A stretch of DNA of 64,000 nt from a virus (Duplodnaviria; Caudoviricetes): positions 1,549 to 65,548 of IMG/VR virus record IMGVR_UViG_3300037840_000041; one strand, written 5' to 3'. Position 1 is the stretch's first letter. Each line of letters opens with the position of its first letter. The translations under genes and the position numbers were made by a program. Below are positions 16,877-57,841 of this stretch, piece after piece. Under the pieces are notes generated by a model, which saw nothing but the letters and a program-made list of their open reading frames with translations, searched no databases and was not told the DNA's origin.

Positions 16877-17041
16877 TCAAATTCTGCCGAGCAACAGCAG
16901 AATGAGCAGGATAACCACAACGAGGCCCAAGCCGCCGCCGACGCCATAGCCGCCACCGTAGAATGGCGACCCACCGATGCCGCTGAAGCCGCCGAGCAGG
17001 GCGATCACGAGAATGATCAAGATGATGGTTCCGATCGACAT
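16877..17041 (-). CDS. DUF3309 family small membrane protein
   Basis: MSIGTIILIILVIALLGG...GYG.GGGLGLVVVILLILLLLGRI; AAAGGA RBS. Confidence 0.85.
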   Translation of the reverse strand: MSIGTIILIILVIALLGGFSGIGGSPFYGGGYGVGGGLGLVVVILLILLLLGRI

Positions 17042-17246
17042 CGGGGTTCCTTTCCGCCCGCGCTCCGCGCGCGCCAACTCCCAGCGCTACCGCTTCTCAC
17101 GCCGATGATCTCGCGGTCGCCATATGCCGACGCAACGATGCCCGGGGATTTGCATCCCGGGCACCGTGCGGATCAGCAGACAGAGGGAGGTCGAAATACC
17201 GGCTAGGGCACTTCGCGGGCGCATTGAGTGTCCGGAACTGTCCGCT

Positions 17247-44588: not shown

Positions 44589-45053
44589 TCAGCGCCCGGT
44601 ATTGGCCGGTGGTTGCGGATGAGCATAGCCCTGCGGCTGTACTAGAATCGAGGCGGCGATCTGCCGGTTGATGTCGTTGATCTGCTGCTGCGCAGCCTCG
44701 AATCTCTTGTCGATGGACTGGGAGAGAATGTCGACCTCCTTACCCTCAACAGGCACATGTGCCGCATGTGCGATCAACTCTCGCTGTGCGGTTTCCAGGA
44801 CGCCAAGCCGCGCCAACACCGAGGCGCTTGCAACCTCCTGCTCATGCTGAAAGGCGGAATGCTCCCGCAGCGAAAGATATTGCGCCCGGATCAGTTCAAG
44901 CGCCCGCTCATGAGTATCAATCCGCCGATCTTGTGCATTGAACTGGTTCTGCACGATGGTGAAGAAGCCGGCGGACAGCGCACAGAAGGCCAAGATGCCA
45001 GCGATGACGACGGACCATGTCAGTTGTGGCCCGCCGTTCGACCCATCAACCAT
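44589..45053 (-). CDS. Single-TM coiled-coil protein (lysis accessory, spanin-like)
   Basis: N-terminal TM followed by heptad repeats; end of lysis region. Confidence 0.55.
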   Translation of the reverse strand: MVDGSNGGPQLTWSVVIAGILAFCALSAGFFTIVQNQFNAQDRRIDTHERALELIRAQYLSLREHSAFQHEQEVASASVLARLGVLETAQRELIAHAAHVPVEGKEVDILSQSIDKRFEAAQQQINDINRQIAASILVQPQGYAHPQPPANTGR

Positions 45054-45072
45054 CCCCGCCCCCTTGCGCTTG

Positions 45073-45429
45073 CTATCGATCGCGTGTCTTCACCGGCGTC
45101 AGCAACGCCTCAATGCGGCTGGCGGTCGCTTGGACGGCAATCACCTTTTCCTCCAAGCGAGCTGTGCGCTCACCCTGTGATGCAGCTGAGGCGCTGGCGA
45201 CGATCGACGCGGCCGACATTTGCGCCTGTAATTTCTCGAGCGCATCGATTCGGGAGTTCATGGCGCTGGCGTACCAGCCGCCGACCACCGCGTTGATGAA
45301 CGCATAGACCGTCATCGTCGCGATGAACACCACCGGCACCCCGCGAACGAGATGCCAATGCGTGTTGCCGTTTTCCAGCGGCTCTCCCTCAGATGCTTCG
45401 ATCATTTTTCTGCCCGTCATTTGCGACAT
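45073..45429 (-). CDS. Single-TM coiled-coil protein (lysis accessory)
   Basis: TM segment, then 'RIDALEK...ERTARLEEKV..V......RIE'. Confidence 0.55.
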   Translation of the reverse strand: MSQMTGRKMIEASEGEPLENGNTHWHLVRGVPVVFIATMTVYAFINAVVGGWYASAMNSRIDALEKLQAQMSAASIVASASAASQGERTARLEEKVIAVQATASRIEALLTPVKTRDR

Positions 45430-45940: not shown

Positions 45941-46879
45941 TCATTCGCATAACCCGTAGCTGGAGGAACAACCGACATGCTTTTCCAGCAATGGCAATTG
46001 GAACTGCATCCCGCCGCGCGACGTGCTCGCCCACTCGACCACCTTGCGGATTCCCCGCTTATCAAGATGGGCATCCCGGTCAGGATCAGAAAAGAACGAT
46101 GCGGCCCGGCGCTTCGCCGCAAGGGCCACAAGGCCCTCCCATTCGGCAATCCGAGCGACGTGCTCGGGGAAGCGGTTGGCTATTTCCGCGATCTCGGATT
46201 TAGCGCAGTTAATGCAGGGCAGGCAGCCAACCCGGCTCATGCCCATGGAGTAGAGCGGATTCAGCTTTATGCCCCGAGCGACCACGAAATCGACCGTCTG
46301 TTGCGCGGTCCAATCCACGATAGGCCGATAGCAATAGAGGCCATCCGTTGTGTGCTCAATCCGCTTCGCGAACTTGCGCTGTTGCGATTCGTCGCGCCGG
46401 ACGCCCTGCCACGACCAAACCTTGAAGCCATCCTTGACGAAGCCATACTGAAAATCGATCAGCGGGATTGTCTTGAGTTCCTGGGTGCAGAACTGCGCTT
46501 TCCGGGACGGAAAGCGCCCCTTCCAAAGACACAGATCAAGGAACGGATTTCCAGTCGGATGCAAGATCGCCAGCGCGCGGCGTTTGGCTTTGTTGGTCCA
46601 GCGAATGCGGCGACCGTCTCGCCTGCCGATACGGGAATCCCGCGCGATGAAAACACGCTTGATGGCGATCTCGGCGCTAAAATCGGCGCGGACGGTTTCG
46701 ATTGTTCGGCCCAGCGCCTTCGGGAGGTAGTCCCGAACGTAATCATAGGTGTATTCGTGCTCGTTGCCGGTATCGGCAAAGACCAGATGCGCGTCCGGGA
46801 ATCGATCAAGGGCAAGCAACGCGGTCGCAGTGGAGTCTTTGCCACCGGATACCGAAACGATATGGGCACGCTTTTGCAT
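45941..46879 (-). CDS. PAPS-reductase family (PP-loop) protein, IS passenger
   Basis: SVSGGKDS, FADTGNE, 'RFPS...FCT.ELK', QGVRRDES..R, NPLY..G..RVGC.PC, terminal CSSSYGLCE. Confidence 0.9.
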   Translation of the reverse strand: MQKRAHIVSVSGGKDSTATALLALDRFPDAHLVFADTGNEHEYTYDYVRDYLPKALGRTIETVRADFSAEIAIKRVFIARDSRIGRRDGRRIRWTNKAKRRALAILHPTGNPFLDLCLWKGRFPSRKAQFCTQELKTIPLIDFQYGFVKDGFKVWSWQGVRRDESQQRKFAKRIEHTTDGLYCYRPIVDWTAQQTVDFVVARGIKLNPLYSMGMSRVGCLPCINCAKSEIAEIANRFPEHVARIAEWEGLVALAAKRRAASFFSDPDRDAHLDKRGIRKVVEWASTSRGGMQFQLPLLEKHVGCSSSYGLCE

Positions 46880-46883
46880 CGGG

Positions 46884-47003
46884 CTATTTGGCCTTCCGCG
46901 CTTTGCGTTGGCGCTTTTTGGCGCTCTTGCTCACGGGTTTCGGGCGATACCGCAGCACCACGTCTGCGATGGCGTCGAGAACCTTGGGCGTTTTCGGCTT
47001 CAT
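46884..47003 (-). CDS. 39-aa basic peptide inside the IS
   Basis: Read manually: MKPKTPKVLDAIADVVLRYRPKPVSKSAKKRQRKARKAK; ATGA overlap with the transposase stop. Confidence 0.55.
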   Translation of the reverse strand: MKPKTPKVLDAIADVVLRYRPKPVSKSAKKRQRKARKAK

Positions 47004-47923
47004 GCGATCAGCGCCTTATAAGTCAGGCGCTTGCCCGCAACGCCGTCAATGAAGCTGCCGAGCCGTTCCAGCGTGTGGCGAGCTACGTTGCCCTCATTCA
47101 ACCGGAAGGCAAATTCATCGACGTAGCGGCCAAGATGCTTTGGGCTGGCATGGTGGTAGACGCCGATCAGCCCGCGCTTGAGAACCGCGAACACGGACTC
47201 GACGCTATTGGTCGTCACGCCGTCGCGGACGTATTCGCCGCCGCTGTGGTTGACGCTCTCGTGCTCAAAGAACAAGCCGCCCATCGCGTGATAAACGGCG
47301 GCTTCGTCCGTGTGCAGCACCGAGCCGACTTCGACGTTCTGCACGATCACGTCTTGGATGGTCTGCAAATCGGTAGCCTCGATTTTGACCGCCTTCACGC
47401 GTCCGCCCTTGCCGCGCTCCTTCATGCCCAGCACGGCGGTTTTTCCGACCGTGCCGCGCCCCTGTTTCAGCTTCTTGTGCTCGTGCTTGTTCGCCTCGAT
47501 GCCGCCGACGTAGGTTTCATCGATTTCGACCAACCCTTGCAACATCGTCATGTCGCCGCCGCAGGCTTCCCGCAGCCGGTGCAGGACGAACCAAGCCGAC
47601 TTTTGCGTGATGCCGATTTCCTTGGCGAGTTGCATCGAGGATACGCCCTTGCGGGCCGTCACAAGCAGGTACATCGCGTAAACCCATTTGTGCAGCGGAA
47701 CGTGGCTGCGCTCGAAAATCGTGCCGGTGCGCACCGTAAAGTCCTCCCGGCACTGGTTGCAGCGGTAGAAGCCGCCCTTGCGCGCCGTGATCCGGTCGCC
47801 CATGCCGCAGACCGGGCAGCGCGGCCCTTCCGGCCACAAGCGGCCCTCCAAATAGACCCGCGCCGTCTCTTGATCTGGGATCATGGCGAACAACTCAAAC
47901 GTCGAAATGGTGGACTTGGACAT
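47000..47923 (-). CDS. IS1595-family DDE transposase
   Basis: Zinc ribbon CPVC...CNQC, 'FTVRTGTIFE.S..PL.KW', VEIDETYVGG, HTDE, VNHS, TN.VE, Y.DEF.FR.N. Confidence 0.95.
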   Translation of the reverse strand: MSKSTISTFELFAMIPDQETARVYLEGRLWPEGPRCPVCGMGDRITARKGGFYRCNQCREDFTVRTGTIFERSHVPLHKWVYAMYLLVTARKGVSSMQLAKEIGITQKSAWFVLHRLREACGGDMTMLQGLVEIDETYVGGIEANKHEHKKLKQGRGTVGKTAVLGMKERGKGGRVKAVKIEATDLQTIQDVIVQNVEVGSVLHTDEAAVYHAMGGLFFEHESVNHSGGEYVRDGVTTNSVESVFAVLKRGLIGVYHHASPKHLGRYVDEFAFRLNEGNVARHTLERLGSFIDGVAGKRLTYKALIA

Positions 47924-47993: not shown

Positions 47994-48034
47994 AAAAATA
48001 AAATCGGCGCCCGGAGCGTACCCCGAGCGCCGAT
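47994..48034 (-). terminator. Rho-independent terminator after the outer-membrane protein gene
   Basis: ATCGGCGC/GCGCCGAT stem followed on minus strand by TTTATTTTT; the U-tract is the IS target. Confidence 0.7.
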
Positions 48035-48053
48035 CATGCGACAGCGGGAAAAT

Positions 48054-48767
48054 TCAGAAAAGCGTCTTCACCCCCGCCATGACGCGGTTCGTCTCCTTGA
48101 CGCAGCCGCCGACGATCGCGACACCGATGCATTTCGCGGTGCTCGGGATCAGGTACTCTGCATAAGGCTCCATCACGATCCCATTGGAGAGCCTGATCTT
48201 GGTGCTCGTGCCGATGTCCAGCCCGAACATGATCTCCTGGAAATTCTGCAGTCCTAGCTTCGCGCCGACATCATCCCACGTCGGGGCCAGATAAATACTC
48301 GGGTTGGACGTCGTTACAGTGACACCTGCGGGGAGCGGATTGATCGACGGCACCGCGTTCTGCAATTGCGACAGTCCCGGGATCGCGGCGATCAGTTGGT
48401 CGATCGGCATGCCGACGCCGAAGCGCTGACGCAGGAAGATCGGCCCGGAGAACAGCGAGAGGCCGTTCGTGGTGCCGCCGTTGATGTTGTGGAAGTCGAA
48501 GTCGCCGTCGATGTACCAAAAGCCCACGGTCCCAACCGGGCAGGTCCACCCTACATTGAGGCCGATCATCCCCTGGGTCATCTGGGTTCCGGCCACGGCG
48601 TTTGCGACCGCGCCCGTCGCGCCACCGGCGTCGACGCCGTAGTATAGCCCGCACTTCGTTGTCGGGTATTTATAGGCCGTCGCCGGCGCCTTCGTCGGCA
48701 GATCAGACGCGGCCGCCGGCACCGCCATCAAAAACGCGGTGATCACCGCGCAAAGAATTCGTTTCAT
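48054..48767 (-). CDS. Outer-membrane beta-barrel protein (Omp25/RopB-like)
   Basis: Sec signal peptide, 'SDLPTKAP' N-terminus typical of rhizobial OMPs, amphipathic strands, terminal Phe. Confidence 0.75.
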   Translation of the reverse strand: MKRILCAVITAFLMAVPAAASDLPTKAPATAYKYPTTKCGLYYGVDAGGATGAVANAVAGTQMTQGMIGLNVGWTCPVGTVGFWYIDGDFDFHNINGGTTNGLSLFSGPIFLRQRFGVGMPIDQLIAAIPGLSQLQNAVPSINPLPAGVTVTTSNPSIYLAPTWDDVGAKLGLQNFQEIMFGLDIGTSTKIRLSNGIVMEPYAEYLIPSTAKCIGVAIVGGCVKETNRVMAGVKTLF

Positions 48768-48880: not shown

Positions 48881-49318
48881 TCAGGAGGCAGCGACCACCG
48901 ATTGGGAGGGCGAGGCGTCAGCAGTCTTCTTGTCGGTCACGATCGTCTGCACTTCCGGCAGCGCGATGGTCGCTGCGATCAACGTGTTCTTGGCGTCGTC
49001 GCTGGTGGGGATTGATTTGTCTTGGGCGATGGCACTGGTCGCCTCGATTAGCGCCTTCTGCGCACTCACGGCCGCTGGGCCAGCTGTCCCTGTCGCTATG
49101 TTCTGGACCGACTTGATGTGGCTGGCTTGCGTGTTGGCGACTAACGACCAGATCGCAACGACGGCATAAGAGATCGGGCCGACCAAAGACAATGCGAGAT
49201 CAACATAATAATTAGCTGTGACGCCATTAACGCCTACCGCTGAGACAACAGTGCCGAGCGCTGGGATAATAATCCTCAGCTGGGCAGTAACCTGTTCTTG
49301 AGACGGGATCGCTGACAT
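48881..49318 (-). CDS. Putative holin
   Basis: Start ATG 49318; two N-terminal hydrophobic segments; in lysis cassette. Confidence 0.6.
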   Translation of the reverse strand: MSAIPSQEQVTAQLRIIIPALGTVVSAVGVNGVTANYYVDLALSLVGPISYAVVAIWSLVANTQASHIKSVQNIATGTAGPAAVSAQKALIEATSAIAQDKSIPTSDDAKNTLIAATIALPEVQTIVTDKKTADASPSQSVVAAS

Positions 49319-49340
49319 AAGGTGATGCTCCCTTCGGGCT

Positions 49341-49841
49341 TCAGTGAGGAATTTCAACGTGTGTCGAGAGAATAGCGAATAGCAGGTCCGGCGAGATATG
49401 ATGGAACGGCTTTGTCATCGGCCATGGGAATATCCCACAGGCCCGCAAACCGCCGCACATGAAGGCCGAACAGAAAATAGTCCCGACTTCGTGCAGGTGC
49501 ACCTCTGTCGCGACGAAGCCGAGAATTGCCTTCCAATCATAGGGTTCGCCAACATGCTTCTCGACGAACGCATAGAAGGCAGCCTCCTGCTCTGGCGTGC
49601 AGGGAATGGAAACGATGCGCTCGCTCTTGGAGCCATCCGGCAACACCATCAAGCTGTCGGCGTCGTAACCAACAGGGCGCCGCAGGATCCCGCCATCGAT
49701 ATGCGCCCCGATATAGAACTTGCCGTCTTGCGACAGCGCCTCGGCATGGCTCGGTGTGAACGGCATCGATGTGCCAGCCTGAAACCGGATCAGGCGCGAC
49801 GAAAAATCGGTGCTCGTGACGAAGCGCATGTTGACGGCCAT
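49341..49841 (-). CDS. Permuted papain-like NlpC/P60 (YiiX-like) amidase
   Basis: 'SHA' His motif first, then 'G.PYDW..I.G', 'FCS', 'ISP..L'. Confidence 0.75.
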   Translation of the reverse strand: MAVNMRFVTSTDFSSRLIRFQAGTSMPFTPSHAEALSQDGKFYIGAHIDGGILRRPVGYDADSLMVLPDGSKSERIVSIPCTPEQEAAFYAFVEKHVGEPYDWKAILGFVATEVHLHEVGTIFCSAFMCGGLRACGIFPWPMTKPFHHISPDLLFAILSTHVEIPH

Positions 49842-49843
49842 TT

Positions 49844-50029
49844 TTAGTCCTTGAGTTTTTCAGCTGCGATCTTTCTCGCTGAGCGCTCGAGCGCAATCAG
49901 CATGTCGAAGTCGTCGCGAAGCCGCTTCTCTTGAGCTTCGCCCTCATACCCGTTTGCATTCAAAAGCTGGCCTGTATGAAGATTGACGAGCGCCGCCTCG
50001 AGGATGCGATCGTAGTCGGCCAGCTTCAC
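49844..50029 (-). CDS. Small hypothetical protein
   Basis: GTGA overlap with the endolysin stop. Confidence 0.55.
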   Translation of the reverse strand: MKLADYDRILEAALVNLHTGQLLNANGYEGEAQEKRLRDDFDMLIALERSARKIAAEKLKD

Positions 50030-50901
50030 GTCGGCAGACCTTTCGCGGCCATGACTTTCTTGATGGCGCCGATCACCTCGGGGCCGGGGATGCCGCGATC
50101 CATGTCGAGATGCTGCTGCTGTTCGAACGCGCGGATCGCCGCGCGCGATCCTGGCCCGATGTTGCCGTCGACTCGAAGCGGCACGTTGGTGACGTGTAGC
50201 CGGTTCAATGACGACTGAATCCAGAAGGCGTCATCGACGGTGCCGTTCTCGTGCGGCACGACAGCGATCGGCGGTGCATCGGTGACCTTCGGGATGAGTG
50301 GAGCAAATGCCAGCGACGGGTCTTGCTTCACCAGTTCCTCGTAGATCGCCAGCGTGCCCAACTGCGGGTCCATCATCGTCGGGTCGAAAAAATGATCGCG
50401 CGGAAATTTGCCGGGCTTCTGGACGGTGGTCGCGCCGAACACATAGGGCGAAGGAAGACCGCGCCGGCGATAGCCGTCGCCGTTCAATTCCTCGGTGCCG
50501 TAGCAGAACAGCGGAATCGTCCAACCACCAAAGATCTTCGCCCACTGATCGAGACCCTCGAGTCGCAGCGCGTCCATGCAGCCGGCATAGAAATCATCGG
50601 GAAACGGCTGCGAAAATGGCCCACGATCAAGCGGAACGATCGTGGTGCGGACCTTCAGGCTTTGCCCGTTGCCGAGATAGCAATGGACGTTGCCGTTCAT
50701 CTCGCGATCTGACAGCGCCATCAGCATGGCAGTCGGCACGGTCGATATCGACTCGACGTGCTGATATAGCGGTTTGTTGGCGATCAGGTTTTTGCAGGAC
50801 GCGACGAGATCATGCTCGCGCTCCGGTTTGATAACCGCGCGCGCGGCGAGATCGGCATATTCCTTTTCACGCTCTGGCGTGAATGCCTGTACGGAGATCA
50901 T
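50026..50901 (-). CDS. Endolysin (lysozyme-like domain plus C-terminal peptidoglycan-binding domain)
   Basis: 'LGNGQ.L...T..VP..RGPF', 'E..NG.GYRRRG.PSPY.F..T','D.QLG'; C-terminal 'IQ..LN......VDG.IGP.SRAAIRAF...G..GP'. Confidence 0.88.
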   Translation of the reverse strand: MISVQAFTPEREKEYADLAARAVIKPEREHDLVASCKNLIANKPLYQHVESISTVPTAMLMALSDREMNGNVHCYLGNGQSLKVRTTIVPLDRGPFSQPFPDDFYAGCMDALRLEGLDQWAKIFGGWTIPLFCYGTEELNGDGYRRRGLPSPYVFGATTVQKPGKFPRDHFFDPTMMDPQLGTLAIYEELVKQDPSLAFAPLIPKVTDAPPIAVVPHENGTVDDAFWIQSSLNRLHVTNVPLRVDGNIGPGSRAAIRAFEQQQHLDMDRGIPGPEVIGAIKKVMAAKGLPT

Positions 50902-50922: not shown

Positions 50923-53142
50923 TTAGTGTCGTCTTCGCGCAATGAGAATGCCGCATACCGACTCGGTCGACAACGTAAATACCGAAGTTGCGACCGCGTA
51001 ATATGTGGTAGTGGCACTCACCAGCAATCGAGTTTGAGGCGTCGTTACGATGTTTGAAGCATTGCCCGTGACGAACCCGCTTGCGCCATATTGCAGGGTG
51101 GCCTGTCTGCCCGGAGTGGTCAAATCGTTGGTGGCCGACGTAGCATTCCATGATGCGTAATCCGCCGTGACATTGGTAGTCGCGGCCGGAACAAAATTCA
51201 AACTCAGAGAAACATCGTAATCTCCCGGCGGAAGCGAGATCGCGGCCACATTGGTTGCAGCGGAATTAGCGAGCGTCATCCCGCCCGTTCCGGTTTGTGT
51301 GCCGGATTGAGTGCCCGATGTGTTGACCGCAGTTCCGGCCAACGCATTCGCGATTGAAGTCGCAACCTTGAATGTGTTGCCGTTGATCGAGTTGCCGATC
51401 ACCCAATAGACCTGGCCAGCCGTCAAGCCCGTGGGGAGCGCACCGCTTGTCGTGAAGGTGATGGGCGCCGTCCAGTTGCCCGAACCCGCCGAGCCAACCC
51501 CGTAAGGGTTGCCCGTCCATGTGATGACAGCAGGACTTGCGATCGTGATGGTGACGGTCGAAGTGACAGCATTACTTGGAGCTGCGGCGGCAATATATTC
51601 ACCGACATATCCACCCGGCGCAGCGTCGTTTGACGTAGTGCCGTAAATGCCGCTGTTGGTGCTTCCTGTTCCTGGAAACGTGGTAGCCCGAGTATTGGCG
51701 TCGATAGTCGCGCTGTTCGCGAGCTGGAATTGCAGCCCCGTCGAGGACGCACCGGAGCCCGTTCCAGAATAAGTCTGGGCAGCGGTGAAGTTGGTTACCG
51801 CGTCCCCACCCGAACCGCTGTACCAAGCCGTGAATGTCTGCGCTCCAGATACGGTGAATGCCTGCGCGCCAGGACTGTTCCATCTGCCGCCGTTGTTCTG
51901 CACGAAATAATTGAAGCTGCTGGAAGTCCCATCGCCGACCTGATGCGTACCGGCATCAGAGACGAAAGTGCCGCCCGTTGCGATGCTGACAAAATTTCCT
52001 CCGACCGCAGAAGACCAAATCTCGTTGATGACCGCAACGATGCCCATCTTGCTGACGTTGATGACATTCAATCCGCTTCCGGTAGTGCGGAAAGTGAAAC
52101 CGCTCAGGACGATTACCGCGCCGTTGTCGGCAGTGATGCCCGCGGTATTCATTACAACCGAGCCAGGCGAACCGGCGTTGCCCGTGATGATGATCGCGCC
52201 TTCCTGGGAATTTGTCCCACCGACGAAAGCAGGCGACTCAGTGAACGACGCGTCGTTGACCTGAATATTTACGAAGCCAGCGGCAACCCCATTGAACAAC
52301 GCCTGCGATGCGACCTTGCCAGCATGCCCAATAGTCGCGAATGCCCTAGTGCTAGACCCGAGACCATCCCCCGTCGTGTCTGAGCCATTGGTATGATCGA
52401 CCTGAAACGTCACCGAGCTTTGCGCGTACCACGGGCCAGGGTTGATAGTAGTGGCCCACACACCGTTGACGATTTGAACCTGAATGGCCTGCCAGGGGAA
52501 TAAAACCGGAAAGGTGCCCGCTGGAAAGCCGGACAAGATTTTTCCAGCCGCCGTATCGCCGTTCAAGACTAGCACGGTGCACTTTGGATCAAAACCAGAA
52601 ACCGCCGGAAGAGTTATTGTGAACTTTCCGGTTGATCCCGTCCCGGCCTGCACTGTCTTGCTGCAATCCGTTGTCGCGATCGTGTAGTTCGAGGTTTGTG
52701 CGTTGAGAGTATTGGCAGCGATTCCGGCCGATGGAGTTGTGACGCAACTTCCCGCCGCAGACGACACTCCACCGCTTAACGCGGGAAGCTGCGAACAAGC
52801 AACATTGCCAGAGAGGGTCCACGCATGAGTGGAAGTATTGATCGTCCCGGTGGTGACCCACGACGCGCCGTCGTAAAAATTTACGGTGTCATTCGGTGAA
52901 GCTGACGTGTTGATCCAGCACTGCCCGAAAGCTGGTGCTGACCCAGGCCCGTTCGCCGGCGCGGTCGGCCCCCAATTGCAGGTCGCAAGCGCGAGCAGCG
53001 CCGGATTGAGATAGGTTGCGGTGAACGTCGCAGCCGACATCGGCCCCGAGGTCGGCGTCTGGTACGATGCCTGGTTCGCCGCAAGCGCAGGCGTGAGTGA
53101 AAGCCAGAGCGCGGCGACGAGTGATGCGAGGCGAGTTTTCAT
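50923..53142 (-). CDS. Tail fibre/adhesin-like protein with N-terminal signal peptide (739 aa)
   Basis: Start refined to ATG 53142; T/G/S/A-rich beta modules; MKTRLASLVAALWLSLTPALA leader. Confidence 0.75.
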   Translation of the reverse strand: MKTRLASLVAALWLSLTPALAANQASYQTPTSGPMSAATFTATYLNPALLALATCNWGPTAPANGPGSAPAFGQCWINTSASPNDTVNFYDGASWVTTGTINTSTHAWTLSGNVACSQLPALSGGVSSAAGSCVTTPSAGIAANTLNAQTSNYTIATTDCSKTVQAGTGSTGKFTITLPAVSGFDPKCTVLVLNGDTAAGKILSGFPAGTFPVLFPWQAIQVQIVNGVWATTINPGPWYAQSSVTFQVDHTNGSDTTGDGLGSSTRAFATIGHAGKVASQALFNGVAAGFVNIQVNDASFTESPAFVGGTNSQEGAIIITGNAGSPGSVVMNTAGITADNGAVIVLSGFTFRTTGSGLNVINVSKMGIVAVINEIWSSAVGGNFVSIATGGTFVSDAGTHQVGDGTSSSFNYFVQNNGGRWNSPGAQAFTVSGAQTFTAWYSGSGGDAVTNFTAAQTYSGTGSGASSTGLQFQLANSATIDANTRATTFPGTGSTNSGIYGTTSNDAAPGGYVGEYIAAAAPSNAVTSTVTITIASPAVITWTGNPYGVGSAGSGNWTAPITFTTSGALPTGLTAGQVYWVIGNSINGNTFKVATSIANALAGTAVNTSGTQSGTQTGTGGMTLANSAATNVAAISLPPGDYDVSLSLNFVPAATTNVTADYASWNATSATNDLTTPGRQATLQYGASGFVTGNASNIVTTPQTRLLVSATTTYYAVATSVFTLSTESVCGILIARRRH

Positions 53143-53143
53143 T

Positions 53144-54409
53144 TTACTGGACTCGGCTGACGGTGATCGTCGTATCGTGAGACCCGCCGCTCTGGTTGAA
53201 CGACATTCTAGAGGTCGTCGTGAACGCATCGCGGCAACTCAGCTTGACGATCCCGCCACTCGGATTGGTGATGAGCCCCGACATGGCGATCTGCGTCGGA
53301 TAGGTGCTAACAGGATTCGTGTTTGCTCCCGATCCGATCTTCGTCGTCCCGTCCCATAGCTGGCAAAAATATTGTCCGGTCGCCGTGTTCAAGATTGTTG
53401 CCATTCCAGACACCAGCCATGTCCCAGTACCGACTCCAGAGATGCTCGGGCCGTCGATATAGATTGCAGTGTTGTTTAGCAGAACATCTGATCCGAGAGA
53501 GGCGGTTTGCGCATTCAGATTGATGGCGCATGTTCCGGTCGTCGTGATCGTGCCGCCAGAAAGTCCGGTTCCGCAGGTCACGCTCTGGACGGTGCCGCCC
53601 GCGATCGCGGAGATCGCGCCCACGGTGACTTTCTTGAAAGCGTTGCCCGCCGCCGAATCGGCAATCATAACGAGGTCGGCGCTGACCGGCGTCGTCTTTG
53701 CGGTCAGGGCGGCAATCAAAATATCCGTCGGATTTGCACTTCCAGAGGTGTTGTTGCCCTTGAAGCTGAAGGCCGCTGACTGCGGTGCTGCTGCGGCCTT
53801 GGTATATTCCAGCATCAACCAGTTACTGCTGCCCATATACATCACGGCCGAGATGTCGCCAGCTTGCGTGACGACATTCGCGGCACCGAGCAGGATCATG
53901 CTCGTTGCGTTATATGTCAACGTCAGCGATCCTGCGAATTTCAGAAAATGGATTGAGCCGACACCTGCCGATGATCCGAACGAGTTTATCGTCGTCGTGC
54001 CGTTGATCGTCTTGAACGTCTGCGGGACCGACCCGAGGTCGGTCGTCGACCCCGAGGAGATCGCCGCGGTGACGATGCCTCCACCAATCTGAGGCGTCTG
54101 AAGATGGTTGGTCGAGTCGACGTACCAGAGATTGAACCAGCTGGCGCCGTCGTACTGCTGAATATAATTGATGTTTGTATTGAACCAGAGTTGCCCGGCC
54201 TGCGGCCCGCTCGGAGCGGATGCGCCAGACCACAGCGAGATCAGCGAATTGTTGCAGGCGTTGATATCGTTGACCAGCACCAGGCCAGACACCGTGCCGG
54301 TCGTCGGCATGATGCACGAGCCCTGCGATGCGCGCGCCGGCGGCGCTGCCAACGCGAACACGGCAGTCATGAACGCCGCGATAAGACGAAGCCTTGATGT
54401 CTTGAGCAT
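53144..54409 (-). CDS. Tail fibre-like protein with N-terminal signal peptide (421 aa)
   Basis: GAGGA RBS; 'SGASAP......GQLW.NT......YDG..W' fibre N-domain; MLKTSRLRLIAAFMTAVFALAAPPARA leader. Confidence 0.75.
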   Translation of the reverse strand: MLKTSRLRLIAAFMTAVFALAAPPARASQGSCIMPTTGTVSGLVLVNDINACNNSLISLWSGASAPSGPQAGQLWFNTNINYIQQYDGASWFNLWYVDSTNHLQTPQIGGGIVTAAISSGSTTDLGSVPQTFKTINGTTTINSFGSSAGVGSIHFLKFAGSLTLTYNATSMILLGAANVVTQAGDISAVMYMGSSNWLMLEYTKAAAAPQSAAFSFKGNNTSGSANPTDILIAALTAKTTPVSADLVMIADSAAGNAFKKVTVGAISAIAGGTVQSVTCGTGLSGGTITTTGTCAINLNAQTASLGSDVLLNNTAIYIDGPSISGVGTGTWLVSGMATILNTATGQYFCQLWDGTTKIGSGANTNPVSTYPTQIAMSGLITNPSGGIVKLSCRDAFTTTSRMSFNQSGGSHDTTITVSRVQ

Positions 54410-54418
54410 CGGTTTTCC

Positions 54419-57400
54419 TCAGTAGCCTTCTACAACAGTGGTGACGCCGTTCACGGCGATAGTCGTGCCGGTATGATCGACCATGTGGAAGGTCAATTGC
54501 GAGAGCGTCAGCAAGTCGATGACATAGTTTGCGTCGGCCGAACCAGACCAGCTCATTGAGACAACCGGGAGCGGATGATTTGATGTGCCGCCCACCAAGG
54601 GGCCACCGTTGAACGGCTTCGACAGGATCGCATCGTCCGGCATGAACACGATTGTCAATCCTGCGGTAGTGACGTTGTTGCCGACGTAGTGATCGACCCG
54701 AGCGGGGATCGAGGCCTGCACCACGAGAGATGTGAGATAGGCGATGATGTTTTGTGTCGTCGTACTGAAGATCGCCCGATACTCGATATATTGCGCGCGG
54801 TAGACGCCCGGTACGTATCTCTGCCAGGCACCCCATTCGACTCCCGCATTGAAAAGGTCCGGGACATCGGTTGTATTAAACATGTCGGTCGGCGAGAACA
54901 TATCGTTCAACGATGCCGATGCGGTTCTGACTTCGATCCACACGTCGACGAACTGCCCACCTGCGGCATTGAGCACGTCAGGATCATTCAGAAAATCTGG
55001 ATTGGAAAGAACGTCGGTGCCCACCGGGATGCCGGCCGATGTCCAAGTGATATTGAGGTAGACGTCGGCGACATAGCCGACATTGAGTCCGAGTGACGGA
55101 TCGGCGGTATATGTGCCGCTCGTCGCCAGCGTGCCTAGATTCAAGATATCGGGTTCGGTGAGAATGCTCGGATCGGTCAGGACATCTCCGGTCCCGGTCA
55201 ACCTCAGCAGCGCGGTGGGGTTTGTCCCTTCTGATCCCACGTTGATGTAAGTCCCGATCCATCCAGCCGCCTGAAAATCAGTCGTCTGGATGATGTTCGT
55301 CGTCAGCATGTTGCCTTGTATCGTAATCGACTCGGCGGTCTCGCCATAGACGATCAAACCAGCAACAGGCTGACAGGTCGGCATGATCCAATAGGTATCG
55401 GCACCGAAGCAAATGAAGGGCGGGTGAGCGACCGACCCGAGGTCTTGCCCGCCGGCGAAGCTCGTTCCTTTCCTGATGATGTAGCGAATGCCTGTTCGGA
55501 AGTCGCTAATCTCCTGCCACCACATCTCGGTGAACTGGTCCTTAAAGACCGTTCTAACCTCGGTGACCGCAGGAAGCGGCGAAGCCAGTGCAGCGCCGGT
55601 GATGACATACGCATAGGCCGGGACATCAGCGAGAGTGTTCGGCGTGACGCCCCAAATGTTGAACGGCAAAAACTTCAGATAGATCGTCGCGCCGATCCGC
55701 GTTTGATCGTAGGGCACTCGCAAGATGCCGTTGTCGAGCCGCGCGAAGCTTGCGCCGATTGCATGATTGACGATCGAGGACTCGGTGCCGTAGGCCCCTC
55801 GCACAAGGTATGTCAGATTATAGGCGTCCGTCCCCGTTAGGGTTGCCGTCTGATAGGCGACGACCTCGCCGTCCACCCAGCACGCCGTATTGAGCGCCAA
55901 CGCATCCGCCTGCGAACCTGACGAAAGCACGCCGCCGCTCTCAGCCAGGTTGACCGACAGCGTGTTTACCGTGTCGATCGTCTGCCCTATCGGGTTCACC
56001 GCGATCACCGGCAGGGCCGCGGTCAGCGCCCCCATCCTCGCCGAACCATACTGTCGGCCATTCGCTATTCTGGCGAAAGGCCCGGTCGCACCGTTGTAAG
56101 AAATATAGACGTCGCAGCCACCGTACAGCGATTGATTGACGCCGGAGATCGCGGCCCACACTTCGAGGCCGCCGGCGAGCTCGTCGGTTGGCTCAAACAA
56201 GATCGGCGGATTGATCTGGCCAGGATCGGCATTGTAGTTTGGCTTGCTCCCTGAACTAGCCTGCTGGCCGTACAGCGGGGACGCGCCGGTGCCCTCGAGA
56301 TATTCCTCGACCAACAGGTTAAGCGTGCGGTCCTGATTCTCGACGATGCTGAGGATGCGCACCCATTGCCGGGCCAGCCCAAGGCCGACATCGGTCAAGG
56401 TAATGATATCGCCGGGCTCCAACAGGATGAAGCGCGGTCGCACCGTCAACGCATAGTTGTTCGCGATCTTCTCTCGACCGAGAGCAAGTTGCGCGGCCAT
56501 CTGCGCGGATGATGCGCTGGTGAACCAATGCCAGGAATTGACGCCCTTTGACCCACGCTCTCCATAAAGAAGGATCGCGCCATCATCCTGAACTTGAATT
56601 GAGGATGGATTGTAGTCGTTGGTCCGGTCGAAATATTCGACCTTGATGACGTTGTTCTGAGAACGAGCCGGTTTCTGCTGACCCGACACCGGGTCGGCGT
56701 TGACGCCGCCGAAGCTGTTCTGATTCGGTAGATAATCCGCGTCCGTCAGATCGTAGACCGGCGCCGTCGGGGGATTGTAAGATCCTTGAGCAGCGACGGT
56801 GAAATTGATGTTGACGCTGGTGCCGGCATCAAGCGGGCAGAACGAGTAAAAGCCGTTAGGGCTGAGTTCGTATTGACCTGGCAGCAACGCCGCCCACCGC
56901 GGTATTGAGACCTTTGTGAGCGGGACTAACGTGGCCGAATTAACCACGCCGAGATCGGCCACGAAGCTGGCGGCCGTTCCAGCTTGAACGTCATAGGAAC
57001 CATCCGGCACAGATTGAATCACGACGACCAAGGTGCTCGGCGTGATGGCCCCGGCGACAATCGACTGGTCGCCCCGCGGCACGAGCTTGAGCACCGCCTC
57101 CGACCAAACCGGCATGACGTTGTGCGATGTCAGCAGCTCGTCGAGAAACGACGAAGCACTTTGCTGCGATGTCATCGCGTAGGAAATCAAAAGCCCCGAG
57201 GCGATCGTATAGCCCTTGGTGTAACTCCAATCTGCGTTGTAAGCGTTTGACCAGCCGGGCACGCCATAATTGGCGTTGCCGAGAAAATCGGCGACGACGC
57301 CAGTTAGTTCGGCATCCGGGTAACCGGCTCCTGAAAGAGTCGCCGCGCCCTGAACCTCAAACGTCCAGTTTGGAAGTTCGGCGGATGATCCAAGATTGAT

Positions 57401-57841
57401 CGTGCCCGGCACATAGGATGTCAGGCGATAGGCGAATGCCTGCGTCGGGTGATTGGCGGTCAGATAGGACCATGGCAACTGCGTCTGGTCGCCGTAAAAA
57501 AAACCGAAGCCGACATTGGTCAGCGAGGTTATGGCCTTGCCGGTCCACATCACGCCGGTCGGCGTGGCCGGTCCTTCGGTTAACGCGATCTCGAGCGATG
57601 CGGCGTAGACAAAGGATGTCCCGGAAGGGCTGCCGAAGATCCCGCCCTTTCCACCTCCAGCACTCGAATTACTCGTAATCGCCTGGGCGATAAAATCGCC
57701 ATACCAAATCAGGTTGCCGGCGAGCCTCGCGGTGCCCCACACGATCGGGCGAGCGAGCCCGATGACCGATGTCTGAACCCGAAGCGCTGTATCCGGGCCG
57801 GTTTGGGCTGCAGCTGTTCCCGAGCCAAATAAAGTGGACAT
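54419..57841 (-). CDS. Tail tip / central tail fibre (host-specificity J-like)
   Basis: 1140 aa; 'VQTS..G...PIVWG..RL.GN.IW', 'LEPGDI.TL', 'L.YL.RGAYGT', 'IYLKF..FN.WG'. Confidence 0.88.
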   Translation of the reverse strand: MSTLFGSGTAAAQTGPDTALRVQTSVIGLARPIVWGTARLAGNLIWYGDFIAQAITSNSSAGGGKGGIFGSPSGTSFVYAASLEIALTEGPATPTGVMWTGKAITSLTNVGFGFFYGDQTQLPWSYLTANHPTQAFAYRLTSYVPGTINLGSSAELPNWTFEVQGAATLSGAGYPDAELTGVVADFLGNANYGVPGWSNAYNADWSYTKGYTIASGLLISYAMTSQQSASSFLDELLTSHNVMPVWSEAVLKLVPRGDQSIVAGAITPSTLVVVIQSVPDGSYDVQAGTAASFVADLGVVNSATLVPLTKVSIPRWAALLPGQYELSPNGFYSFCPLDAGTSVNINFTVAAQGSYNPPTAPVYDLTDADYLPNQNSFGGVNADPVSGQQKPARSQNNVIKVEYFDRTNDYNPSSIQVQDDGAILLYGERGSKGVNSWHWFTSASSAQMAAQLALGREKIANNYALTVRPRFILLEPGDIITLTDVGLGLARQWVRILSIVENQDRTLNLLVEEYLEGTGASPLYGQQASSGSKPNYNADPGQINPPILFEPTDELAGGLEVWAAISGVNQSLYGGCDVYISYNGATGPFARIANGRQYGSARMGALTAALPVIAVNPIGQTIDTVNTLSVNLAESGGVLSSGSQADALALNTACWVDGEVVAYQTATLTGTDAYNLTYLVRGAYGTESSIVNHAIGASFARLDNGILRVPYDQTRIGATIYLKFLPFNIWGVTPNTLADVPAYAYVITGAALASPLPAVTEVRTVFKDQFTEMWWQEISDFRTGIRYIIRKGTSFAGGQDLGSVAHPPFICFGADTYWIMPTCQPVAGLIVYGETAESITIQGNMLTTNIIQTTDFQAAGWIGTYINVGSEGTNPTALLRLTGTGDVLTDPSILTEPDILNLGTLATSGTYTADPSLGLNVGYVADVYLNITWTSAGIPVGTDVLSNPDFLNDPDVLNAAGGQFVDVWIEVRTASASLNDMFSPTDMFNTTDVPDLFNAGVEWGAWQRYVPGVYRAQYIEYRAIFSTTTQNIIAYLTSLVVQASIPARVDHYVGNNVTTAGLTIVFMPDDAILSKPFNGGPLVGGTSNHPLPVVSMSWSGSADANYVIDLLTLSQLTFHMVDHTGTTIAVNGVTTVVEGY

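Follow-up and report, generated by a model that had tools for sequence, protein, structure and literature searches.

Two tail-fibre genes with Sec-type leaders and paired cysteines in a soil-type phage: possible export and periplasmic folding of the fibres

The window analysed here (the whole stretch of 64,000 nucleotides) belongs to the record of a complete, soil-type phage of 65.5 kb, whose late tail operon carries two fibre genes, P0001 and P0002. The first of these lies directly after the gene of a J-like tail-tip protein, and the elements of this part of the operon are the following.

54419..57841, minus strand: J-like, megatron-type tail-tip gene, 1140 aa, without leader (Pfam Phage-tail_3 and Rcc01698_C; PHROG tail protein)
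54416..54420, minus strand: GAGGA ribosome-binding site of P0001, read from the sequence, 6 nt before the ATG
53144..54409, minus strand: P0001, fibre gene 1, 421 aa (open reading frame and translation), with leader, predicted docking N-domain, shaft and lectin-like head
50923..53142, minus strand: P0002, fibre/tailspike gene 2, 739 aa (open reading frame and translation)
50026..50901, minus strand: endolysin-like gene, next in the operon, with a PG_binding_1 domain and without an N-terminal membrane segment

The GAGGA of P0001 overlaps the TGA of the upstream J-like gene, and the ATG of P0002 (53140-53142) is found 1 nt past the TAA of P0001 (53144-53146), so that the starts, the ribosome-binding site and the 1-nt gap read as in the initial annotation. 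The intergenic gaps along the run from the J-like to the endolysin-like gene are 9, 1, and 21 nt. The sole strong terminator is located at 48002-48035, with none between the fibre genes and that position, and no promoter excess was found around the fibre genes. An own promoter and terminator, as expected of moron or lysogenic-conversion (Lom-like) genes, were thus not apparent for P0001 and P0002, which appear to be co-transcribed within the tail module and adjoin the tip protein, as is typical of virion fibres.

The frame of P0002 was not picked in the gene map of the window, a rough, GC3-based map of 84 genes, but homology shows that P0002 is a real gene. The public gene call for it, P0122, has 705 aa, starts at Met35 and omits the leader. 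Downstream starts at Met34 of P0001 and Met35 of P0002 were considered and rejected, as each of these methionines is internal and conserved in the relatives, which extend upstream of it; Met35 of P0002 is part of a GPMS motif that is internal in the relatives, all of which extend upstream with a leader.

The N-terminus of P0001 reads MLKTSRLRLIAAFMTAVFALAAPPARA followed by SQ, and that of P0002 MKTRLASLVAALWLSLTPALA followed by AN, with the following leaders.

54329..54409, minus strand: Sec-type leader of P0001, residues 1-27, with K3, R6, and R8, a hydrophobic core, and A-R-A before S28
53080..53142, minus strand: Sec-type leader of P0002, residues 1-21, with K2 and R4, and A-L-A before A22

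As judged from the sequence, both appear to have what a Sec signal calls for, i.e. a charged n-region, an h-region shorter than a membrane anchor, and small residues at -3 and -1; this n/h/c anatomy, together with the A-x-A site, bears out the Sec-type leaders that had been ascribed to both genes. A lipoprotein signal was rejected, the +1 residue being S or A and never C, and so was a Tat signal, P0001 having R-L-R rather than R-R and P0002 a single R. The window's own OMP-like gene beside the tail genes (48054-48767) also has a classical leader; in the 84-gene map only this gene and P0001 carry a leader of the classical n-h-c form, and counting P0002, which is absent from that map, the window holds three.

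Among 280 distinct relatives that share the N-domain, mostly from metagenomes and not independent sequences, 232 carry a leader according to our own heuristic scoring, which is not a trained predictor, and the relatives of P0002 have the same kind of leader. A rule-obeying cleavage site is present in 225 of the 232. In the 223 leader forms whose anatomy was analysed, the leader has a median length of 24 aa (quartiles 22 and 28) and an uncharged run, including the c-region, of median 18; K or R precedes the hydrophobic run in 220 and occupies positions +1 to +5 in none (0/223), while Ala is found at -1 in 211 and at -3 in 161. Long leaders of 45-64 aa were seen in 6 of 112 cases, and the P0002-type cleavage site is uncertain by one residue. 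What is conserved is the form of the leader and not its sequence.

The remaining 48 of the 280 relatives are leaderless and start with M-S-Q at the position where cleavage is predicted. At the DNA level, eight leaderless loci were seen, and seven of them (L011, L026, L029, L036, L038, L048, and L056) have an in-frame stop 0-6 codons upstream, the eighth, L031, having 38 non-hydrophobic codons upstream. The conserved form of the leaders and the start of the leaderless relatives at the predicted cleavage position support the view, already taken in the initial annotation, that these leaders truly serve as export signals and can be cleaved. The phage of locus L011 has one leaderless fibre beside two leader-bearing ones; export is therefore not needed for docking as such, which speaks against the export reading.

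The cysteines of P0001 form the pairs C32/C52, C279/C294, and C349/C392, and the seven of P0002 comprise C55/C75, C116/C133, C160/C188, and a lone C730, so that, as noticed earlier, all six in the first protein and six of the seven in the second fall in pairs. Counted in the rows of alignments A4 and A6, C32/C52 has both cysteines in 28 rows, neither in 12, and one only in 0; the corresponding numbers are 9, 12, and 0 for C349/C392 and 23, 1, and 0 for C160/C188. For C55/C75 they are 22, 3, and 8, the partner being two columns off in some lineages, and for C279/C294 and C116/C133 the alignment is too sparse to judge pairing. The N-domain pair is present in 204 of the 232 leader forms vs 0 of the 48 leaderless ones (Fisher 1.5e-34), as anticipated if leader and pair co-occur, while a lone N-domain cysteine is found in 0/232 and 10/48, respectively. 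The pair occupies five alternative column pairs (62, 36, 30, 6, and 2 sequences), and the total of mature cysteines is even in 206 of the 232 leader forms vs 24 of 50 leaderless rows (this set includes two 5'-partial ones). In addition, all 27 proteins bearing a G-x-G-L-x-G-G-x-I-T repeat have leaders, and the motifs contain both cysteines in 21 cases, neither in 7, and one only in 0; the loci contain only two such motifs, so that there is no leader/leaderless contrast.

On a tree with the cysteines masked (FastTree topology), the leader was gained or lost on at least 14 occasions, and there are 7 supported independent pairs. The cysteine pair shifts the same way as the leader in 5.5 of these 7 on average and the opposite way never, giving a median p of 0.031 in a sign test. 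The cysteines thus appear to be gained and lost in pairs and to be tied to export, and the confinement of the pairs to leader forms supports their assignment as disulfides formed outside the cytoplasm, in line with the periplasmic oxidation proposed at the outset. On the other side, the 28 of 232 leader forms with zero N-domain cysteines, the 26 of 232 with an odd mature total, and the seven cysteines of P0002 tell against the export reading, as does the small base of the phylogenetic control, with 7 pairs (p ~0.03) and a FastTree topology.

The domains of the two mature proteins are arranged as follows.

54095..54328, minus strand: P0001 N-domain, residues 28-105, with Cys32/Cys52 (homologue alignments)
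53147..53431, minus strand: P0001 C-terminal jelly-roll head, approximately residues 327-421, with Cys349/Cys392 (Foldseek)
52813..53079, minus strand: P0002 N-domain, residues 22-110, with Cys55/Cys75, homologous to that of P0001
51580..52422, minus strand: P0002 right-handed parallel beta-helix, approximately residues 241-521 (AF2 and VIA-align)

The N-domain that the two proteins were said to share is real, 78 of 124 homologues with the N-domain having matched both seeds. P0001 has 244 homologues, and a fibre profile finds 18,795 cluster representatives at E <= 0.001, many via the shaft repeat alone. Pfam (E <= 0.01) and NCBIfam have no family for either protein, PHROGs gave only weak matches of unknown function for P0001, and the solved structures include no relative of the fibre family by sequence. 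The Pfam Collar domain PF07484 was not matched in P0001 or P0002 (E <= 0.01); it is present in some relatives with the same N-domain. The AF2 model of P0001 has a mean pLDDT of 72.8, and its head resembles TNF/C1q-like lectin heads in Foldseek (2wq4, TMt 0.58; 9ib7, TMt 0.54), the neighbours also including the Bd2734 C-domain (8okw). For P0002, a right-handed parallel beta-helix, as in tailspikes, is predicted with a pLDDT mostly above 90, and VIA-align gives Z of 13-17 over ~210-245 aligned residues to pectin methylesterases, pectate lyases, and tailspike depolymerases (6c72, 5w6h, 9rkv), while Foldseek against the PDB returned nothing at E <= 0.001. The Atlas neighbours shown for the fibres are mostly or wholly viral. 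Across the family the N-terminus is conserved and the C-terminal heads are shuffled.

The candidate partner of the N-domain lies in the C-terminal part of the J-like protein.

54422..55594, minus strand: J C-terminal module, residues 750-1140, co-occurring with the fibre N-domain
54962..55021, minus strand: predicted fibre-docking peg, J residues 941-960, with D-x-L repeats

The PDB profile matches of the J-like protein (lambda gpJ and megatron proteins) concern its N-terminal and central part only, and no PDB match covers the C-terminal part. This module accompanies the fibre N-domain even in phages with a different tail tip, and L945, L951, and D955 of the peg are nearly invariant. In the model of the complex, three mature fibre N-termini sit on J residues 941-960, the predicted docking surface of P0001 being mature residues 8-21 with the PTTGTVSGL motif. 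The ipSAE is 0.73 vs 0.01 for the best control, with three runs in agreement and a partner pLDDT of 70-71, in a run with one J fragment and alignments of our own that lies outside the calibration of the tool; among solved complexes 116 of 157 attain this ipSAE mark, and among mismatched pairs 2 of 215.

The order TMP-DUF2460-BR0599-NlpC-J-fibre is kept in 6/6 viral loci. Alignment-based scans of viral contigs yielded loci where a single-protein scan gave only two weak ones. A J-like gene is immediately upstream of the fibre in 33 of 40 loci, and in 14 of those 33 the C-terminal module is the sole part of J that is shared. The immediately upstream ORF is not J-like in the other 7, two of which come from a single contig with a small ORF in between. 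Profile scans of genome contigs gave no loci with alignment A1 and two with A2, in Nitrobacter and in a Rhizobiales MAG. Bradyrhizobium phage ppBdUSDA122-1 has the same leader-bearing gene pair behind a J-like 'tail protein', and its tail module instead has genes annotated as DUF1833 and C40 peptidase. This phage, whose host is non-pathogenic, was produced as virions in culture according to the available part of PMC10127595, in which no virion proteome was found. The synteny behind J, the co-occurrence with the J module, the folds, and the docking model with its passed controls support the identity of P0001 and P0002 as genuine tail fibres, which is what they had been called initially.

The evidence is consistent with a pathway, of which we judge the chances to be about even, in which the fibres are exported, become disulfide-bonded, and join the virions when lysis merges the compartments. 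Both P0001, as a side fibre, and P0002, as a tailspike, would be made as Sec pre-proteins, with the leader carrying the unfolded chain across the inner membrane. Signal peptidase I would then cut after A-x-A, leaving the same N-terminus as in the leaderless relatives, and the chains would fold and trimerize in the periplasm, where the host Dsb system would close the local cysteine pairs. The freed motif (mature residues 8-21 of three chains) could clamp the J peg. Since J itself lacks a leader and tail assembly is cytoplasmic, fibres and J would meet only when the compartments become continuous through holin lesions or lysis, and the addition of the fibres would thus fall at or after lysis. 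The anatomy and conservation of the leaders, the starts of the leaderless relatives, the confinement of the cysteine pairs to leader forms, the operon position, the co-occurrence with the J module, the folds, and the docking model are all computational results; we infer export, cleavage, Dsb oxidation, periplasmic trimerization, and the time and place of attachment. What speaks against late loading is that fibres added only after lysis would be quickly diluted. The broader proposal, that in a large lineage of tailed phages of alphaproteobacteria some of the virion is made outside the cytoplasm, with Sec-secreted, Dsb-folded, periplasm-held fibres snapping onto DNA-filled particles at holin action or lysis, seems to us to fall slightly short of an even prospect. 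To our knowledge, no tailed phage studied so far matures parts of the virus outside the cytoplasm, and a literature search, covering sources other than subscription journals, brought up no tailed phage described as having a tail fibre with a Sec leader.

The same leader and cysteine evidence would also be obtained if the fibres were exported and never entered the virion, acting instead in the envelope of the dying cell by cutting or binding polysaccharide or by masking the receptor, which we consider unlikely. Such masking would be in the manner of Llp of T5 and Lom of lambda, which are exported and whose genes adjoin those for receptor binding. The beta-helix of P0002 is of the depolymerase type, with the structural neighbour VexL titled a periplasmic depolymerase, and a protein of this kind, placed in the periplasm, might cleave or bind the polysaccharide of the cell surface and thereby keep the progeny from sticking to debris; no unprecedented assembly step would be needed, and adsorption might require no more than the J-like tip. 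However, leaderless fibres at the same genomic site have this N-domain too, and it is always accompanied by the J C-terminal module and is predicted to clamp the conserved J peg. The genes are, moreover, translationally coupled in the late tail operon without a promoter of their own, and their architecture, in which the N-terminus is conserved and the heads at the C-terminus are shuffled, is that of a virion fibre. The surface display or receptor blocking that the initial annotation had offered as an alternative is thus kept in weakened form, because of the late-operon position and the predicted docking. A dual route, in which fibres pooled in the periplasm first act on the envelope and, at lysis, themselves load onto virions, export being selected for two reasons, would combine the evidence for both places, in each of which an enzymatic tailspike would be useful; the envelope activity is, however, putative, and we regard this route as quite unlikely.

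It is very unlikely, in our estimate, that the leader is not used for export at all, with cytoplasmic assembly, a hydrophobic N-terminus used, for instance, in timing, membrane tethering or removal by a phage protease, and cysteines oxidizing only after release. All tailed phages studied follow the rule of assembly in the cytoplasm, and disulfides can form in released virions without export, which weighs against the export reading; virion disulfides without export are reported for a tail tube in the accessible text of PMC13576161. However, such oxidation would not explain why the pair is absent from all 48 leaderless relatives, and the positive-inside n-region, the median-18 uncharged run, and an A-x-A site not followed by K/R predict a translocated and cleaved C-terminal body. 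The public gene call of P0002, which starts past the leader, would fit an unused leader, but Met35 is a conserved internal residue.

Several known systems resemble P0001 and P0002 in part. Siphophages carry side tail fibres or tailspikes on the tail tip, as in lambda Stf or the RcGTA fibres on the megatron protein. P0001 and P0002 are like these in following the J/megatron gene, in their conserved N-terminus, predicted to dock on the tip, and shuffled receptor-binding C-terminus, and in their predicted TNF/C1q-like head (P0001) and beta-helix (P0002). They differ in that a Sec leader with leader-linked cysteine pairs is the rule, whereas known siphophage fibres have no signal peptide and are assembled in the cytoplasm, and in matching no Pfam or NCBIfam family and, by sequence, no solved relative. 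The adsorption protein g3p of filamentous phages has a Sec leader and disulfides formed in the periplasm and, by analogy, P0001 and P0002 may likewise be phage receptor-binding proteins with a Sec leader and putative periplasmic disulfides. Filamentous virions are, however, assembled at and extruded through the envelope, while the partner here would be a DNA-filled tailed particle from the cytoplasm, and there is no relation in sequence or fold to g3p.

SAR endolysins and spanins demonstrate that the Sec route still operates late in infection, with phage proteins staying in the periplasm until lysis is triggered; they are likewise Sec-dependent late phage proteins but act as lysis effectors and are not virion parts, unlike the role proposed for P0001 and P0002. 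Bdellovibrio fibre adhesins are exported for display on the cell, and the Bd2734 C-domain has a phage-fibre-like head. The genes of these adhesins are, however, on the chromosome of a predatory cell, where there is no tail for them to dock on, whereas P0001 and P0002 stand in a phage late operon with a predicted docking partner. Lambda Lom and T5 Llp also have a signal peptide and adjoin tail-tip or fibre genes, the position and leader of Lom being stated in the available part of PMC12309495. Those, however, are small membrane proteins or lipoproteins that remain in the envelope of the host. P0001 and P0002 are, by contrast, large fibres of modular build, with an N-domain also found in leaderless fibres and a predicted binding to the tail tip.

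The textbook assembly pathways of tailed phages are all cytoplasmic. If the fibres are indeed exported and loaded late, completion of the virion would depend on Sec, signal peptidase, and Dsb, making periplasmic redox and secretion host factors for phage infectivity, and lysis would be the last step of virion assembly, with completion coupled to it. Fibreless particles and free fibres should then coexist in lysates, and the fibres could carry disulfides hardening them for life in soil. This would affect host-range engineering and also the recombinant production of such fibres, for which a periplasmic or oxidizing host would be needed. In metagenomes, fibre genes with a leader may carry wrong annotations; gene callers sometimes clip the leader, as for P0002.

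Both tail-fibre proteins of the window, P0001 and P0002, carry a Sec-type leader, as the initial annotation had proposed: its n-region is basic, its core is hydrophobic and it ends in an A-x-A site. The N-domain said to follow the leaders is indeed shared, 78 of the 124 N-domain homologues collected in the first set matching both seeds. The two genes are located as follows.

53144-54409, minus strand: P0001, 421 aa (open reading frame and translation)
50923-53142, minus strand: P0002, 739 aa (open reading frame and translation)

In a rough 84-gene map of the window, a classical leader was read by eye at two N-termini, those of P0001 and of an OMP-like gene at 48054-48767; the map missed the frame of P0002, which provides the third leader. 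The first homologue set (n = 124) contained 112 leader forms (19-64 residues), 9 leaderless forms and 3 clipped gene calls. Viral loci, another homologue search (the third) and a profile search against 1.84 billion representatives extended it to 280 distinct N-domain proteins, two 5'-partial sequences being dropped. A leader was found in 232 of these, the remaining 48 being leaderless, where the scoring follows heuristic rules of our own. The 223 analysable leaders have a median length of 24 residues (quartiles 22 and 28). Ala occupies position -1 in 211 of them and position -3 in 161; Lys or Arg precedes the hydrophobic run in 220, and no leader is followed by Lys or Arg within the first five mature residues. 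In 225 of the 232 leader forms, a site that satisfies the -3/-1 rule is found 1-2 residues ahead of a conserved Gln, and neither a lipobox nor a twin arginine was found in the leader set with the heuristic scoring. What is conserved in the leader is its form, not its sequence.

The leaderless relatives all start with M-S-Q (48/48, one of them M-A-Q), and their Met aligns with the -1 Ala of the leader forms. The leader thus acts like a detachable module, set ahead of an N-terminus that needs to be free at exactly that point. At the DNA level, an in-frame stop is located 0-6 codons 5' of this Met in seven loci (L011, L026, L029, L036, L038, L048 and L056), while in an eighth, L031, the 38 codons upstream are not hydrophobic; the leaderless state is therefore not an artefact of gene calling. 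The converse concern, that the real start of a fibre lies downstream of its leader, was not borne out for P0002. The public call P0122 (705 aa) begins at Met35, but this start was ruled out, Met35 being an internal conserved residue, and the relatives of P0002 all reach upstream of it with a leader. Two more relatives, P0027 and P0381, are likewise cut short, their calls beginning with the conserved Met of an MPTTG motif, and gene callers may hide leaders systematically in this fibre family.

The local pairing of cysteines also holds: P0001 has six and P0002 seven, in pairs 15-43 residues apart plus a lone Cys730. The proposed co-occurrence of leader and cysteine pair is pronounced among the homologues. 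Two N-domain cysteines are present in 204 of the 232 leader forms, none in 28 and a single one in 0, whereas the 48 leaderless forms have a pair in 0, none in 38 and a single cysteine in 10 (Fisher 1.5e-34). Depending on the lineage, the pair occupies one of five alternative column pairs (62, 36, 30, 6 and 2 sequences), so there were several separate origins, each of them of two cysteines together. Mature cysteines add up to an even number in 206/232 leader forms vs 24/50 leaderless rows (two partial ones included), and the cysteine density is doubled in the leader forms (medians 1.25 vs 0.61 per 100 residues). At the level of individual pairs, the alignment rows retain C349/C392 of P0001 as both (9) or neither (12) and never one only, and C160/C188 of P0002 as both in 23 and neither in 1, again never one only; C55/C75 has one member alone in 8 rows, which reflects a partner displaced by two columns in some lineages. 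As a control for relatedness, a tree was built with the cysteines masked. On this tree the leader state changes at least 14 times, giving 7 supported independent contrasts, in which the cysteine pair follows the leader change in 5.5 on average and goes the opposite way in 0 (sign test, median p 0.031). The raw association between leader and cysteines is very strong; the support from the tree-controlled test is modest.

The virus record that contains the window is 65,548 bases long, has direct terminal repeats and is estimated to be 100% complete. Upstream of P0001 on the same strand lie the tape-measure gene, DUF2460, Phage_BR0599, an NlpC/P60 peptidase and the 1140-aa tail-tip protein (the J-like protein, in which the domains Phage-tail_3 and Rcc01698_C were matched); together they form a tail module of the RcGTA/megatron type. 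The GAGGA motif 6 nt before the ATG of P0001 is overlapped by the tail-tip stop codon, the P0001 stop and the P0002 ATG are 1 nt apart, and 21 nt past P0002 begins an endolysin-like gene with a PG_binding_1 domain. Promoter-like sites show no excess over chance, and the sole strong terminator (48002-48035, minus strand, 15 pairs, the strongest of the region) lies behind the OMP-like gene. P0001 and P0002 are therefore members of the late tail and lysis operon, not additions with independent transcription.

The 237-aa product of the OMP-like gene (48054-48767, minus strand) has the classical signal peptide MKRILCAVITAFLMAVPAAA followed by SD, and five cysteines, and matched nothing in Pfam or NCBIfam; in appearance it is a moron for an outer-membrane protein ending the late operon, in a position comparable to that of lambda lom. 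Between it and a PAPS-reductase-like gene (45941-46879), the phage genome contains an IS1595-family transposase (DDE_Tnp_IS1595 plus zinc ribbon; 47000-47923, minus strand).

The predicted folds are those of fibres. The P0001 model (mean pLDDT 72.8) has a jelly roll at its C-terminal end, for which the structural matches include trimeric TNF/C1q-like lectin heads, the tip of lambda gpJ and the head of a Bdellovibrio fibre. The P0002 model (mean pLDDT 67.6, rising above 90 for most positions between 125 and 470) contains a right-handed parallel beta-helix with Z of 13-17 to pectin-modifying enzymes and phage tailspike depolymerases; Foldseek alone gave no match for it at E <= 0.001. Among the ESM Atlas neighbours listed for the N-terminal half, most or all are viral. 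As in fibres generally, relatives join the same N-domain to other heads (Collar, collagen, pyocin-knob). The relatives with a named source come from Bradyrhizobium, Tardiphaga, Nitrobacter, Devosia and other alphaproteobacteria, and the profile search returned 18,795 representatives at E <= 0.001, many via the shaft repeat alone. Of 81 matches in which the middle or C-terminal modules are all that is shared, 69 were also scored by a crude rule as having a leader-like N-terminus, with even cysteine totals in 57/69 of these vs 4/12 of the others. One P0001 variant of 381 aa, P0003, encoded on a contig of 1,511 bases, is 90% identical overall and misses about 40 residues right after YDGAS, either through a natural deletion or through faulty assembly.

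The gene order tape measure-DUF2460-BR0599-NlpC-J-fibre is kept in all six viral loci of the P0001-type alignment scan, and the ORF immediately 5' of the N-domain gene is J-like in 33 of 40 loci, the 40 including near-duplicates and one contig, counted as two loci, with an intervening small ORF. Of the 33, 14 share with the J-like protein no more than its last ~390 residues and otherwise have a tip protein of another kind; the joint occurrence of fibre N-domain and J C-terminal module thus extends across tail types. One of these 14 is the Bradyrhizobium phage ppBdUSDA122-1, where a tail module whose annotations include DUF1833 and C40 peptidase genes is followed by two leader-bearing fibre relatives with cysteine pairs. 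Its host, Bradyrhizobium diazoefficiens USDA 122, produces the phage spontaneously; according to PMC10127595, it sheds siphophage particles in culture and the prophage too has an insertion sequence. A term search of that paper for "signal peptide", "tail fiber", "mass spectrometry" and "proteom" gave no match. Leaderless fibres sit in the same genomic slot as leader-bearing ones.

A complex of the J C-terminal module (residues 750-1140) and three P0001 chains (mature residues 1-110) was also modeled, with an alignment for each partner. The docking score is 0.73 (median of three runs) vs 0.01 for the best of three controls, although custom alignments and the multi-copy design lie outside the calibration of this score, whose benchmark mark is reached by 116/157 solved complexes and 2/215 mismatched pairs. 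The runs agree, with partner pLDDT of 70-71. On the fibre side the predicted interface comprises mature residues 8-21 of all three chains, the most conserved motif of the family, and on the J side residues 941-960, which form D-x-L repeats with L945, L951 and D955 nearly invariant.

54962-55021, minus strand: predicted docking peg, D-x-L run DVLSNPDFLNDPDVL (alignment A5)

The peg is kept even in tip proteins otherwise unlike the J-like protein; locus L029 has a 24-residue insertion inside it. No solved relative of the fibre family was found by sequence in the PDB, and the PDB matches of the J-like profile end before the docking region, so the score is unlikely to come from reproducing a known structure. 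The predicted complex supports binding of the P0001 N-domain to the J C-terminal module. By every computational test available, P0001 and P0002 would be virion fibres.

The J-like protein has no leader and is part of the particle filled with DNA in the cytoplasm, while its predicted fibre partners carry leaders and disulfide-type cysteine pairs, the latter missing from leaderless relatives. The simplest reconciliation is that the fibres are exported, then cleaved, oxidised and trimerised in the periplasm, and would meet the particles once holin lesions or lysis remove the membrane barrier. We give this form of the loading proposed initially an even chance. The endolysin-like protein has no membrane segment, which points to a membrane-opening holin, as is usual for such endolysins. 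Weak points are that free fibres would be diluted after lysis, that 28 of the 232 leader forms have no N-domain cysteine, and that in phage L011 a leaderless fibre is followed by two with leaders. Export for action on the envelope only, for example by cutting or masking surface polysaccharide, is unlikely in our estimation; the enzyme-like helix of P0002 speaks for it, the slot shared with leaderless fibres and the predicted J interface against it. A combination of envelope action with a virion role, which draws on both, seems rather improbable. We regard it as very unlikely that the leader is not used for export and oxidation follows release. In favour of this reading, disulfides are reported to form in a tail tube without export (PMC13576161); against it, the fibre leader looks like a fully functional Sec type, positive-inside, which would place the protein body in the periplasm.

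P0001 and P0002 are themselves tail fibres, a known kind of protein; the assembly route implied by export and loading would be new for tailed phages. No report of a Sec leader on the tail fibre of a tailed phage was found in the full-text literature, a source with most subscription journals outside its coverage.

In L011 (7998-13186, plus strand), three N-domain genes follow the J-like gene on one viral contig. The first fibre is leaderless and has no N-domain cysteine, the second has a leader, and the third, ~680 nt further on, has a leader and a cysteine pair; cytoplasmic and exported fibres may thus coexist on one phage. Three small proteins of the window (44589-45429 and 48881-49357, minus strand) matched no family and have one or more hydrophobic segments, which makes them candidates for holin or spanin components. 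Outside the lysis region, a 66-aa protein (16877-17077, minus strand) has a very hydrophobic segment followed by a glycine-rich tail (GGFSGIGGSPFYGGGYG).
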